64,000 bases of DNA from a bacterium. GTDB lineage: Bacteria > Zixibacteria > MSB-5A5 > GN15 > FEB-12. The position numbers and the translations under genes were made by a program. Shown piece by piece: positions 58,640-62,747 of this stretch. Each line of letters begins with the position of its first letter. Within the stretch, counting starts at the first letter, position 1. Under the pieces are notes generated by a model that searched no databases, was not told the DNA's origin, and was given only the letters and a program-made list of their open reading frames with translations. The stretch is taken from the NCBI GenBank assembly GCA_043811375.1, contig JBDRNJ010000006.1, positions 1 through 64,000 on the forward strand, given 5' to 3'.

Positions 58640-61039
58640 ATGGCTCGCACCAGCGAATACGTCACGGTGGCCGTATCCGGCCCCCTGCGCAGAACTTTCA
58701 CCTATCGCCTGCCGTCGATATCGACTACTCTACAGCCGGGACAAAGGGTTCTGGTGCCTTTTGGTTCGGCCAGGAAAGTTGGTTTCTACCTCGGCCCGGG
58801 TGAACCGATCGGGTCTCTGAAGATCAAGGAGATCATCAGATTTATCGATGAGTACTCACTGTTTCCCAAAGAACTGTTTCGCCTGTGCTGCTGGATGGCT
58901 GACTACTATTTCGCCAATCCGGCCGACTGCCTTCAGACAGTATTGCCGCCGGGTATGAAGTCCGGCCACCAGGCAGTCTACTATTACAGCGAGACGGCCG
59001 ACCGAAGTGTTTCATTACCCGCCTGGCTGGAACCGTTAGTGAAGCCGGGACGACCGGTGGCGATATCAACGTTGCGCAGGATAAAATCCCAGGGTGGTCG
59101 TCTGCTGACACGATTACGACAGCAGGAAGTTATTACCGAAGTCTGGCCGGAAGTGAGTTCCCGGTCCCAAAGGAAGGCCGCCGGCTACCGGGTCGCGGCG
59201 GTCGAGAAATGGCATCTGTATTTTCAGAAGAAGGGCTTCACCCCGGAGCCATTTGATGGCACCAGGACCCGAAAAGAATTAACAGCCACCGGTTTCAGCG
59301 ATTACCGCATCCGCCAATCGGTGGCGGATGGTCTCCTGCAACCGGTTTACCATGATGATCTCAAAACAATACTGAGTTTTATCGAACCAAGGCAGGATGT
59401 CGCTTCTCTCGTACTTAATGATGAACAACAGTCTGTGCTGGATACTCTCAAGGCCGATCTCAATAGTGGTTTCACTACCGGTCTGCTTCACGGAATCACC
59501 GGTTCCGGCAAGACCCTGGTCTACTGCCACCTGGCCAGGGAAGTGCTGCGGCAGTCGAAGACCGTTTTGGTTCTTACACCGGAGATTGCCCTGGCCGGGA
59601 CCACTTTGGCATATTTCAGGGGTTTCTTTGGCGGGCAGGTGACAGTAGTGCATTCGGCGATGACCCCGCGAGAGAGGATGGCCGGATGGCGGGGTGTCAG
59701 GGAAGGGAAATTCCGTGTTGTGGTGGGTCCGCGCTCGGCTTTATTGACGCCGTTGCCGGACCTGGGATTGATTGTGGTCGACGAAGAACATGACAGCTCC
59801 TACAAACAGAATGATCCGGCACCGCGCTTCCATGGCCGCGACACAGCCATCATGCGGGCCAGATTTAACGACATCCCTGTTTTGCTGGGTTCGGCCTCAC
59901 CGTCTCTCGAATCATACTATAACACCCGCACCGGTCGGTATCGTCTGCTGCGTCTCACCAGGCGTCCCGGCACTACCAGCCTGCCGACCGTAAAAGTAGT
60001 AGACATGCGCAAAGAGCGAATCAGGGGTGACCTGCCGTTTCTGTCTTACCCGCTTAAAAAAGCAGTCGAAAGACGGCTGCAAAACGATGAGCAGGTTATT
60101 CTTTATCTCAACCGGCGCGGCCACTCCCCACAACTCAAGTGTGCATCATGCGGCCATGTACCCCAGTGTCCTCAGTGCCGGGTGAACCTGACCTGGCACA
60201 AAGCCGGTGGTAAGCTCTCGTGTCACTACTGTGGCCACCTGGCGGCCGGATTCAGCAGTTGTCCCCGGTGTGGGGGCGGCGATATTCTCTATCTTGGAGC
60301 CGGGACCCAGAAGGTGGAAGAGGCCGTTGGCCGCCTGTTTACCGATGCTCGAGCGGTCCGGTTCGATTCTGATTCTGTAGCTGGAAGGACCAAAGCCCAC
60401 CAGGTCCTGACCCGGTTTGCCGCCGGAGAGCACAATCTGTTGCTGGGGACACAGATGGTTACCAAAGGGCTGGACCTGCCGGGAGTAACTCTGGTGGGCG
60501 TACTGGCGGCTGATCTCAGCCTGGACCTGCCTGATTTCCGTGCTTCCGAGCGAACCTTTATGCAACTTCTCCAGGTAGCCGGTCGTTGTGGCCGCGCCGA
60601 CAAACCGGGTGAAGTGTTAATCCAGACTTTCTATCCTGACAGCCCGGTTATAAACGAAGCTGCCGCTCAGGACTATCAGACATTCTTCGACCGGGAGATA
60701 AAATCCCGCCGGGAACTTCACTATCCGCCGACAGCACGCCTGGTTAATTTTGTCCTTTCCTCGACGAACGAAAAGCAACTGGAGTCCGCAATCACCTCTT
60801 TTCGTGACCGGCTTAACCGGACGGTCGACGAGTCCGGCGTCAAGGTCACCATACTGGGTCCGGCGCCCTGCCCCATGTATTTTCTACGCGGCCGCTACCG
60901 CCGGCAACTGATTGTCAAGACCCGACAGGTAATAAAACTCCTGAAAACCCTGACCGACTGGGAGAACCGCCGGCCACGATTCAAACTGCCCTCCTCGGTG
61001 CGTATCGCCGTCGACGTAGATGCTCAGGATATGATGTAG
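58640..61039 (+). CDS. priA: Primosomal protein N'
   Basis: GITGSGKT; DEEH; GSASPS; four CxxC; GTQMVTKGLD; QVAGRCGR. Confidence 0.97.
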   Translation: MARTSEYVTVAVSGPLRRTFTYRLPSISTTLQPGQRVLVPFGSARKVGFYLGPGEPIGSLKIKEIIRFIDEYSLFPKELFRLCCWMADYYFANPADCLQTVLPPGMKSGHQAVYYYSETADRSVSLPAWLEPLVKPGRPVAISTLRRIKSQGGRLLTRLRQQEVITEVWPEVSSRSQRKAAGYRVAAVEKWHLYFQKKGFTPEPFDGTRTRKELTATGFSDYRIRQSVADGLLQPVYHDDLKTILSFIEPRQDVASLVLNDEQQSVLDTLKADLNSGFTTGLLHGITGSGKTLVYCHLAREVLRQSKTVLVLTPEIALAGTTLAYFRGFFGGQVTVVHSAMTPRERMAGWRGVREGKFRVVVGPRSALLTPLPDLGLIVVDEEHDSSYKQNDPAPRFHGRDTAIMRARFNDIPVLLGSASPSLESYYNTRTGRYRLLRLTRRPGTTSLPTVKVVDMRKERIRGDLPFLSYPLKKAVERRLQNDEQVILYLNRRGHSPQLKCASCGHVPQCPQCRVNLTWHKAGGKLSCHYCGHLAAGFSSCPRCGGGDILYLGAGTQKVEEAVGRLFTDARAVRFDSDSVAGRTKAHQVLTRFAAGEHNLLLGTQMVTKGLDLPGVTLVGVLAADLSLDLPDFRASERTFMQLLQVAGRCGRADKPGEVLIQTFYPDSPVINEAAAQDYQTFFDREIKSRRELHYPPTARLVNFVLSSTNEKQLESAITSFRDRLNRTVDESGVKVTILGPAPCPMYFLRGRYRRQLIVKTRQVIKLLKTLTDWENRRPRFKLPSSVRIAVDVDAQDMM

Positions 61040-61337
61040 GCAGCATCCGTATCAGCGCCAGTAAGTATCATCTACCGCCATTACCTGAAATTGATAAAAT
61101 CATCAGCCTGGTTCCGGCTGCAACCAAACCTGAACTTGATAATGTACTGGAAGGTGCTAAGTTCACTCAAGCCGTTTACGGCGGTTGGTTGAGGGTTATA
61201 TTATGCTGTCATAGAGAGAGTTACGTCAGGTCATTTTCAGGCAAGTCTATTATTAAGAGATGTGAAAAAAATACGAATTGTCTAAGATAAAAGTTGACAT
61301 AGGTTTTGTGGACATATTAAATACAATTTTCAAAGAC

Positions 61338-61424
61338 ATGTTAATCATAATTTTAGGCATAGTACTACTATTGCTTTCAGACGCCAAACTGCTGGCCATA
61401 GAGGGAGCGGCGGTTGTCGTCTAA
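61338..61424 (+). CDS. Putative leader peptide, Leu/Ile/Val-rich (28 aa), not in ORF track
   Basis: Hand translation MLIIILGIVLLLLSDAKLLAIEGAAVVV*; 11 of codons 2-13 are Leu/Ile/Val. Confidence 0.6.
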   Translation: MLIIILGIVLLLLSDAKLLAIEGAAVVV

Positions 61425-61470
61425 ATTCACGAGGACTGGGGATAAAACCCCGCACGGTTTTGGCATTTGT

Positions 61471-61504
61471 GGCCACCCGGTATTGATCGGGTGGCCTTTT
61501 TTTT
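61471..61504 (+). terminator. Intrinsic terminator in the 5' leader (attenuator)
   Basis: GGCCACCCGGT-ATTG-ATCGGGTGGCC followed by T8, 22 nt before the ATG. Confidence 0.85.
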
Positions 61505-61526
61505 ACCCCAACATGAGGAGAGCGAG

Positions 61527-62522
61527 ATGCGGCATTTAGCGGTTACCAATGGCGAGTTTGTCAGGACCAGTGTCCTGCGTTCGAGGTTACTCAAGTCTGC
61601 CCGCGATTGGTTTGATGAACATTCATTTGTCGAGATTCAGGTACCTCATATTACCGGAGCAACCGGTTCCTGCGAGTGGTTTCCCAACGCCATGCCGGTC
61701 ACGATGTTCGATCAGGATGGTGCCGAGACCACCATGTTCCTGCGGCAGACGGGGCAACTCTACCTGGAAGCCTTCACGGTCGCCCATAACCGTGTCTACA
61801 CCATTGGACCGTCGTTTCGTCAGGAACGCAAGGTAACCGACCGCCACCTGTGCGAATTCACGCTAATCGAGTTTGAGGCTCGGGACCTTGACCTGGACAG
61901 CCTGATGGATCACATTGAGTCGTTGATCAAAACAATGTTTACCGGTGCACAGGAATTGTATCCCAACGGTTTGCTGTCTAAGTACGCACACCTGCCGTTT
62001 AACCGGATATCGTACGCTGACGCAGTTGCTCTTCTGCAGACGAACGGCCACACGATTGAGCTAGGTGATGATTTCGGAAGTGGCGAAGAAGGAGCTCTGT
62101 GCCGGATGCTTCACGATCTGCCAACTTTTGTGACTCATTACCCCTCCAATCCCAGACCGAAAAAGGGCGGCGTGATAAAGTTCTTCTCCATGAAACGCGA
62201 TAACGGGACCACGCTTTGTTGCGACCTGCTGCTGCCGCACGCCGGGGAATCAGTCGGCGGAGCCGTGCGTGAGGGCTGCACCGGGACCTGCAAGAAACAG
62301 TTTGAGGAATCTTACATGTACGACCACCTGGTGGAACGTGGTGTCGATCCGGCCCAGTTTGAGTGGTATTTTGAGACGCTCCAGCAGGCGGATGGTCAGT
62401 CGACCGGATGTGGGATCGGCTTTGAGCGGGTGGTGCAGTCAATCATGGCGACTGAGCAAGGCCACATGAGTATCAAGACGGCTGTGGAGTTGCCGCGATC
62501 ACCGGAGTTCCTGACGCCTTAG
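61527..62522 (+). CDS. AsnRS/AspRS-like class II aaRS catalytic-domain-only paralog (331 aa)
   Basis: FVEIQVPHI (motif 1); FLRQTGQLYLEA; GPSFRQE..RHLCEF (motif 2); GCGIGFERVV (motif 3); no N-terminal OB domain; GAGGAG RBS. Confidence 0.85.
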   Translation: MRHLAVTNGEFVRTSVLRSRLLKSARDWFDEHSFVEIQVPHITGATGSCEWFPNAMPVTMFDQDGAETTMFLRQTGQLYLEAFTVAHNRVYTIGPSFRQERKVTDRHLCEFTLIEFEARDLDLDSLMDHIESLIKTMFTGAQELYPNGLLSKYAHLPFNRISYADAVALLQTNGHTIELGDDFGSGEEGALCRMLHDLPTFVTHYPSNPRPKKGGVIKFFSMKRDNGTTLCCDLLLPHAGESVGGAVREGCTGTCKKQFEESYMYDHLVERGVDPAQFEWYFETLQQADGQSTGCGIGFERVVQSIMATEQGHMSIKTAVELPRSPEFLTP

Positions 62523-62649
62523 AGACGGCAACGGATTCAACTCAGTGGCGGCGGCATGGAAGTATCCAGGGGCGGATTGCCGGGCTTCAGGTAGTCGGTG
62601 AACGATGGCCGGGTCACGGCAGGCGGTCGGGCTGAAGTCTGGTGAAACA

Positions 62650-62722
62650 TGACCCCAACGGGAGTCGAACCCGTGCTTCCGCCGTGAAAGGGCAGTGTCC
62701 TAGGCCACTAGACGATGGGGTC
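62650..62722 (-). tRNA. tRNA-Glu(TTC)
   Basis: Reverse complement GACCCCATCGTCTAG..CTGCC-CT-TTC-AC-GGCGG..GTTCGACTC..GGGGTCA. Confidence 0.95.
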
Positions 62723-62747
62723 ATATTCGTGACTCTGTCGAGCCTTC

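Follow-up and report, generated by a model that had tools for sequence, protein, structure and literature searches.

A stand-alone asparaginyl-tRNA synthetase (AsnRS) catalytic core is encoded near the end of a 64,000-nt stretch of a Zixibacteria genome (assembly GCA_043811375.1, contig JBDRNJ010000006.1, positions 1 to 64,000, forward strand; the window below), behind a leader with two overlapping upstream open reading frames (uORFs), the second of which runs through an intrinsic terminator. This leader is probably a two-uORF relay variant of the pyrBI/pyrE type of attenuator, switched on at low uridine triphosphate (UTP), and the AsnRS-derived enzyme under its control a probable stand-in for CarAB at the entry to pyrimidine synthesis, with both the signal and the chemistry inferred. 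The anatomy of the leader and its conservation, the exclusion between the gene and carB, the operon context and the domain fusions of the family were directly observed; new here are the mutual exclusion with carB across the phylum and the proposed relay of two uORFs. No description of this leader or enzyme was found in the open-access literature, subscription papers being outside the scope of the search and supplements possibly listing such genes.

For the comparison of leaders, 121 loci were gathered, of which 119 covered the start of the gene; once 9 that were too short and the near-duplicates had been removed, 71 leaders were left. The homologues carry source labels from Zixibacteria. A terminator was found at the same place just before the gene in 58 of these 71. 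Finer tests used the 50 of these 58 with at least 62% identity, among which 43 carried the module described below under relaxed rules and 7 did not; a 41-leader set was obtained by dropping L084 and L086, which are disrupted by repeats. A short-leader class of 15 rows was reduced to 14 because L013 is a long leader that had been caught by a second TTGAC.

The coordinates of the features are collected in Table 1. The TTG start of uORF2 sits 8 nt before the stop of uORF1 (stop1), in the +1 frame, and the end of uORF2 overlaps the gene start by 13 nt, with a gap of only 22 nt between the T-run of the terminator and the gene. This module, comprising the Shine-Dalgarno sequence (SD2) and start of uORF2 (start2), stop1 and a uORF2 open to the terminator, was present in 40 of 58 leaders, compared with 3.4 ± 1.8 and a maximum of 10 in 200 shuffles, and the offset from start2 to stop1 was 8 nt in 28 of 43. 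Run in the other phase, the test returned 21 (5.7 in shuffles), an excess that is expected if a Shine-Dalgarno sequence with an open start is the shared part; any open reading frame (ORF) led by such a sequence passed through the terminator in 50 of 58 leaders (14.6 ± 3.2 in shuffles). In the short class, where openness had not been selected for, 13 of 14 leaders had an NTG 8 or 11 nt before stop1 together with an open +1 frame; in the fourteenth (L082) the ATG is shifted to -4 and the +2 frame is open instead. Two loci earlier set aside as too short also matched the module. In the frame of uORF2, 13 of 41 leaders had their first stop past the T-run at -7 to -2 relative to the gene start; in the other frames 1 and 0 did.

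The homologous leaders show no conserved sequence core and no conserved amino acid in either uORF. In the short class, uORF1 holds 27-29 codons in 14 of 14 leaders, and the indels visible in the alignment are 3-nt steps. SD2 and start2 lie within a hairpin in the homologues (mean z -1.6; 26 of 41 below -1), for which the hairpin at 61379..61422 of the window has its own z of -0.96, and the mini-hairpin H3 before the terminator is likewise kept (mean z -1.65; 20 of 41 below -1.5). In a distant clade of about 50% identity, two tandem terminators lie under one long uORF, with overlaps of the TAATG or ATGA type in four loci. Within this genome the module stands before 1 of 20 terminator-preceded genes, namely the gene discussed here. 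A wider regulon in the genome was considered and rejected, as the module occurs once only and look-alike promoters and terminators led elsewhere. Asparagine sensing was also rejected, asparagine making up 2.7% of the codons of uORF1 and 3.4% of those of uORF2, without enrichment over other frames.

It could be argued that uORF1 is an independent gene for a hydrophobic peptide, followed by a constitutive terminator, with the enzyme made from leak or from another promoter. The peptide does have a hydrophobic N-terminus and a weak match to DUF5510, below the cut-off (E 0.008). The homologous peptides, however, are often basic and polar, the gap from T-run to gene start is only 22 nt, and uORF2 would be left unexplained, so that we regard this account as scarcely credible.

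Two further features point to UTP as the signal. TTT at positions 6-8 past the predicted -10 was found in 35 of 44 homologous promoters, compared with 1 of 58 other promoter-like sites of the genome; the start sites are predicted ones, the count still includes two misses due to promoters that were picked wrongly, and 6 of the 50 leaders gave no promoter. For the promoter of the window itself (61294..61322), a consensus promoter scan gave no listing. Between stop1 and the terminator, a T-run of at least three was present in 33 of 41 leaders, against 9 of 41 for a segment of equal length in uORF1, and the difference persisted when the first 15 nt past stop1 were left out (26 versus 6 of 41). The start region of the family resembles the starts of codBA and upp. 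In the distant clade, (G/A)ATTT occupies positions 7-11 in 13 of 13 promoter rows, some of them near-duplicates, versus 0 of 58, and matches the pyrBI 5'-AATTTG given in PMC6524683. That paper describes UTP-dependent stuttering at three or more T and start-site switching for pyrC, while PMC7818426 and PMC4824070 describe pausing that responds to UTP and a pyrBI leader ORF that contains the terminator. As a uORF through the terminator combined with conserved T-runs is the design of pyrBI and pyrE, UTP control and a pyrimidine role were predicted for the gene, and the prediction was then tested on carB.

The same 201 sampled Zixibacteria genomes were used for the gene family and for carB. The gene was present in 44 and carB in 57, with an overlap of 0 where 12.5 were expected; put otherwise, carB was found in 0 of 44 gene-bearing genomes and in 57 of the 157 others. 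A wider profile added six more members, all in genomes without carB (0 of 50; 14.2 expected). Five genera (g4, g13, g16, g40 and g62) each hold gene-bearing and carB-bearing genomes, never with both in one genome. Both gene-bearing genomes of g62 lack carAB at its syntenic site; in g4, the synteny comparison did not find the anchor gene in G010. The gatB control showed no exclusion (14 of 30 versus 15 of 25), and a link to GatCAB was discarded on these counts. Since argG was found in only 3 of the 201 genomes, CarAB here serves pyrimidines, which also ruled out arginine as a confounder. As a separate observation, the carAB genes of the phylum fall into two or more sequence types and sit at unrelated sites (L138-L157), suggesting repeated acquisition.

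The neighbourhood of the added members leads in the same direction. One lies in a pyrR-pyrB-pyrC-gene operon (G116), a second after pyrC (G134) and a third after pyrD (G197), the last in a 5%-contaminated assembly whose contig may be foreign; the remaining three of the six have no pyr neighbour in the ORF listing. For the close family, no conserved partner was seen among the 78 scanned of 126 ORFs immediately flanking the gene. In L050 and L089, rtcB lies divergently upstream. Taken as a whole, the genomic association with pyrimidine synthesis is strong, and the gene controlled may belong to that pathway.

Several points weigh against this reading. The counts come from related genomes and leaders, which are not independent, so p-values overstate. 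pyrB was found in 55 of 55 genomes tested, including all 30 that bear the gene, which does not favour a complete bypass leading to dihydroorotate and argues mildly for a role at the level of carbamoyl phosphate. Neither the gene nor carB was found in 94 of 201 genomes, and these double-negatives, together with a carbamate kinase in 54 of 55 genomes, mean that neither is essential. The carA leaders do not share the design, with the TTT motif in 1 of 19 and no attenuator (one of the 20 regions was taken from the wrong side), and the idea of a leader common to carA and the gene was dropped. The pyr operon of this genome begins with pyrR, and another mode of control thus exists. H3 could equally be an antiterminator melted by the ribosome, which would reverse the sign of the response. 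Thirteen of the 71 leaders have no terminator, several of them with repeat or insertion sequence (IS) insertions. Finally, in a quick tree the fused members of the enzyme family fall in other subclades than this gene, and the members from pyr operons, which are not among the rows placed in the tree, were assigned to other subclades as well. With regard to the double-negative genomes, those tested keep pyrB and carbamate kinase, and a search of five of them for hidden paralogues found none; one carbamate kinase match (G150:C73:29961-30890) contains a single internal TAG.

The original prediction had described the downstream gene as an AsnRS-like catalytic paralogue, and it is an AsnRS catalytic core without an anticodon domain: PF00152 is its sole domain, and the anticodon-binding OB domain is absent. 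Its scores stay below the curated cut-offs both for asparagine-tRNA ligase (176.8 against 414 bits) and for archaeal-type asparagine synthetase A (PRK06462; 90.5 against 368 bits). The predicted model (pLDDT 78.9) matched AsnRS best (PDB 1x54, TM-score 0.76). Over 70 paralogues the ATP-motif residues R98, E100, R106, H107, D233 and E241 are kept, with R301 in 69, as are the AsnRS-aligned pocket positions T75, Q77, E115, E117 and R248, which we take to be those that bind asparagine. C49, R73 and C231 are new invariants; Cys49 lies within a TG[AS]CE motif, and Arg73, Cys231 and Cys295 are additions of the Zixibacteria branch. The TG[AS]CE family, as defined here, combines the G47/C49 motif with a branch of support 98 apart from canonical AsnRS in a quick unrooted tree, in which one motif-bearing row (P0232) groups on the canonical side. 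A G[AS]CE-type motif was seen in 77 of the 150 best representatives, and named members include Aenigmarchaeota, Bathyarchaeota and a Psychrobacillus. Replacement of AsnRS was rejected, as 55 of 55 genomes encode a complete AsnRS and a search with NF005052 returned AsnRS genes only. No family member was found in viral contigs, and plasmid and phage records gave only matches of about 28-35% identity, annotated as asnS where named.

Fusions were seen in distant relatives. Among 16 longer hits scanned, P0200 joins the core to MGS, PyrD (dihydroorotate dehydrogenase) and a weak PyrE-like match (E 6e-5), and P0167 joins it to MGS alone. The fused MGS matches the C-terminus of CarB; MGS is the UMP-sensing domain of that protein. 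A search for longer forms found only an intein-bearing member, P0274, whose intein lies directly before the invariant Cys of the TGACE motif.

Our leading guess for the chemistry is an ATP-dependent closure of asparagine and bicarbonate to dihydroorotate via a carbamoyl-adenylate, to which TsaC offers an analogy. Closure of N-carboxy-asparagine via an adenylate would yield dihydroorotate, which fits a fusion leading straight to PyrD; alternatively, the enzyme may supply carbamoyl phosphate or carbamoyl-aspartate. Only tentatively, and as a possibility we would not put at even chances, the whole TG[AS]CE family might, as a single chain and with ATP, make dihydroorotate directly out of asparagine and bicarbonate; this would open a second de novo entry to the pathway, around CarAB, PyrB and PyrC, in Zixibacteria, archaea and other bacteria, with the present gene tuned by a UTP sensor of the two-uORF relay kind.

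For the leader, the following sequence of events is proposed. A ribosome would load onto the near-leaderless uORF1 and, at stop1, melt the hairpin over SD2 and restart 8 nt upstream on uORF2. The restart would cost time, and with ample UTP the RNA polymerase would complete the terminator first, leaving the gene off. At low UTP the polymerase would pause at the T-runs before the terminator, allowing the uORF2 ribosome to catch up and cover the 5' arm; in this on state the ribosome would read through the terminator and be delivered to the start of the gene. The T-run at the start site may add UTP-dependent stuttering or a choice of start site, and the peptide sequences of both uORFs would be irrelevant. 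One RNA run (X1) gave a single 150-nt piece within the gene, left the leader uncovered and is evidence neither way.

Table 1. Features of the leader and the gene in the window
Feature	Position	Strand	Energy, conservation or basis
Predicted sigma-70-type promoter (TTGACA 61294-61299, 17 nt, TTAAAT)	61294..61322	+	Sequence; TTGAC at the same place in homologues
T-run at positions 5-8 past the -10 (predicted initiation window); candidate UTP-sensitive start or reiterative-transcription tract	61327..61330	+	Putative function
uORF1, near-leaderless, 28 codons, product MLIIILGIVLLLLSDAKLLAIEGAAVVV	61338..61424	+	Length kept in homologues, sequence not
Hairpin over the uORF2 start region ('pause' hairpin of the original prediction; equivalent of H1)	61379..61422	+	-18.1 kcal/mol
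Long-range antiterminator arm of the original prediction	61393..61402	+	Duplex with 61466-61475, -13.4 kcal/mol; not conserved
Shine-Dalgarno sequence of uORF2 (SD2), GGGAG	61403..61407	+	Sequence
uORF2, TTG start 61414, stop 61537-61539, 41 codons, crosses the terminator	61414..61539	+	Sequence
Small hairpin H2, candidate pause hairpin	61437..61452	+	-7.2 kcal/mol; three consensus pairs (12-sequence alignment)
T-runs (TTTT, TTT) right before the terminator; candidate UTP-sensitive pause	61458..61468	+	T-run enrichment in homologues
Mini-hairpin H3, running into the start of the terminator 5' arm	61461..61475	+	-4.4 kcal/mol
Intrinsic terminator, 11-bp stem 61471-61496 and T8 61497-61504	61471..61504	+	-22.3 kcal/mol
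Shine-Dalgarno sequence of the main gene, GAGGAG	61515..61520	+	Sequence
Stand-alone AsnRS catalytic core, 331 aa, TG[AS]CE family; candidate CarAB-replacing enzyme of de novo pyrimidine synthesis	61527..62522	+	Fold, motifs, carB exclusion, fusions, pyr operon context

Upstream of the leader lies priA (58640-61039), and a tRNA-Glu(TTC) gene on the minus strand (62649-62723) converges on the 3' end of the main gene. Several homologous leaders depart from the layout in Table 1. In L004, L035, L079, L080, L084, L086 and L087, repeats or an IS481-like element have replaced or broken the leader, and the promoter or the terminator has been lost. L010, L011, L025, L089 and other long leaders carry about 65 extra nt between promoter and uORF1, while L022 and L024 have a strong Shine-Dalgarno sequence followed by ACG or ATC, a possible non-canonical start of uORF1. 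A distant family member (L167, in G005) has its own promoter and a uORF through a terminator, apparently following the same logic.

The original prediction had read the leader as an attenuator of the ilv/leu type, in which 61393-61402 becomes available for pairing with the terminator arm once a ribosome stalls at Leu, Ile or Val codons. The TTGACA, the ORF 61338-61424, the hairpin, the long-range duplex and the T8 terminator on which it was built are all present, although two features had been overlooked: uORF2 with its path across the terminator, and the T-run where transcription is predicted to start. Also borne out were the density of these residues in uORF1 (11 of codons 2-13 and 17 overall) and the preference for A-ending codons, which make up 8 of 17 in uORF1 versus 30 of 181 in priA, 8 of 62 in the paralogue and 9 of 94 in a TPR gene (10-17% for these neighbours). 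Such a density was met in 1 of 17,506 ATG-started ORFs of 20-35 codons in the genome, a sequence beyond chance, and the value of 11 in 12 makes this leader an outlier among its homologues too (binomial p 2e-4). In a transcript of the window that ends at 61482, placing the ribosome at codon 13 gives the long-range helix a probability of 0.99. In 13 of 14 short-class leaders the third codon encodes Ile, the closest relatives starting MIIILL or MLILLL; no ilvD was found in the genome, which is 95% complete; and a Trp-rich leader before trpE makes classical attenuation plausible in the organism. That leader (MAVMTKKTGLSYYWPGVYWWWYYIT...) lies with its terminator at G000:C25:3370-3560 (+), ahead of a trpE-like gene.

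Against this stand the homologues. The 13 leaders of the same layout hold only 2-7 of these residues in codons 2-13 and encode unrelated peptides, so that of the conserved uORF that had been anticipated the length is kept and the sequence rich in Leu, Ile and Val is not. The pairing of uORF1 with the terminator arm, expected to recur among homologues, has a mean z of -0.02 (3 of 41 below -1.5), like shuffled sequence. Folding with the ribosome masked was expected to separate a stall from the stop, but sequestration of the arm differed little here between codon 13 and the stop (-10.1 versus -8.2 kcal/mol), and the 13 homologues were inconsistent in direction. The ATC at codon 3 is found at equal promoter distance also in leaders without that ATG, and the gene has no link to branched-chain amino acids and strong ones to pyrimidines. 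Sensing of Leu, Ile and Val is accordingly unlikely, be it the chief signal or a further layer acquired by the lineage, although a local layer of this kind may exist. The wider claim, that this is a ribosome-coupled transcription attenuator whose pairing with the gene hints at the function of the paralogue, has held. A striking run of control codons in one genome can thus mislead.

A sensor of transcription-translation coupling or of translation stress in general, akin to bmrB and lacking nucleotide specificity, would agree with the conserved length of uORF1 and the variable amino acids of both uORFs. In Bacillus subtilis, bmrB has its terminator in a translated leader and answers ribosome-targeting antibiotics, according to PMC4191407. 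A sensor of this kind leaves the conserved T-runs of the start region and of the segment ahead of the terminator, the carB exclusion and the pyr context unexplained, and we consider it rather unlikely. For PyrR, a T-box or a riboswitch acting on the terminator through H3, with the uORFs secondary, speak the conservation of H3, its overlap with the terminator arm and a PyrR encoded in the genome; the start motif CTTTHAG resembles the U-rich end of PyrR loops. As the original prediction had anticipated in asking for T-boxes and riboswitches to be excluded, no Rfam family approached its gathering score, either in this leader or in 12 homologous loci, a result that is weak for PyrR because the site before the pyrR of this genome (L130) was missed too. 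The leader also has no conserved sequence core and UGGN is not invariant, making such a regulator very unlikely. A T-box suggested by UGGC had been rejected, the UGGC being misplaced as well as variable. Upstream of pyrR-pyrB-pyrC, G000:C57:9823-9960 (-) may hold a PyrR-binding loop; Rfam gave none there.

CarAB is generally regarded as catalysing the first step of pyrimidine synthesis, yet carB is absent from 144 of 201 sampled genomes of the phylum, with pyrB in 55 of 55 tested. A small AsnRS-derived protein acting in place of CarAB would be a new enzyme activity, would correct many mis-annotations as 'asparaginyl-tRNA synthetase' and would be a further case of a tRNA synthetase core recruited to nucleotide metabolism. 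The leader would likewise be a new build of the UTP type of attenuator, based on the delay of termination and restart between two uORFs.

Compared with known systems, the leader is most like those of pyrBI (pyrL) and rph-pyrE of Escherichia coli, with which it shares a terminator in a translated leader ORF (PMC4824070), T-rich pause candidates and a start T-run (PMC6524683, PMC7818426) and a pyrimidine-linked gene. It differs in that the terminator is crossed by uORF2, on which translation would restart after the near-leaderless uORF1 and which ends at the gene start; moreover, a sister clade has one ORF over two terminators, the target is no known pyr gene and the UTP response is a predicted one. 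The E. coli ilvGMEDA and leu attenuators (ilvL, leuL) are matched in this one genome by a short uORF rich in Leu, Ile and Val, an alternative pairing and a T-tailed terminator, whereas control codons and antiterminator are not conserved and the terminator is crossed by a second ORF. A translated leader ORF with a terminator inside it is also known from B. subtilis bmrB-bmrCD, but there with one leader ORF, an antibiotic signal and a transporter as target, and the abstract and outline of PMC4191407 describe no start-site T-run. For the enzyme, the AsnRS core (1x54) and the archaeal asparagine synthetase AS-AR (PDB 3p8t, PRK06462) share the class IIb fold, motifs 2 and 3 and the aligned pocket residues, and AS-AR also the missing anticodon domain; unlike either, the enzyme stays under all curated cut-offs and has the invariant Cys49 in TG[AS]CE. 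With CarAB it shares an apparent slot, given the exclusive distribution, the place after pyrC and the MGS common to the fusions, while its catalytic fold is unrelated and a single 331-aa chain with a candidate chemistry would take the place of CarAB.

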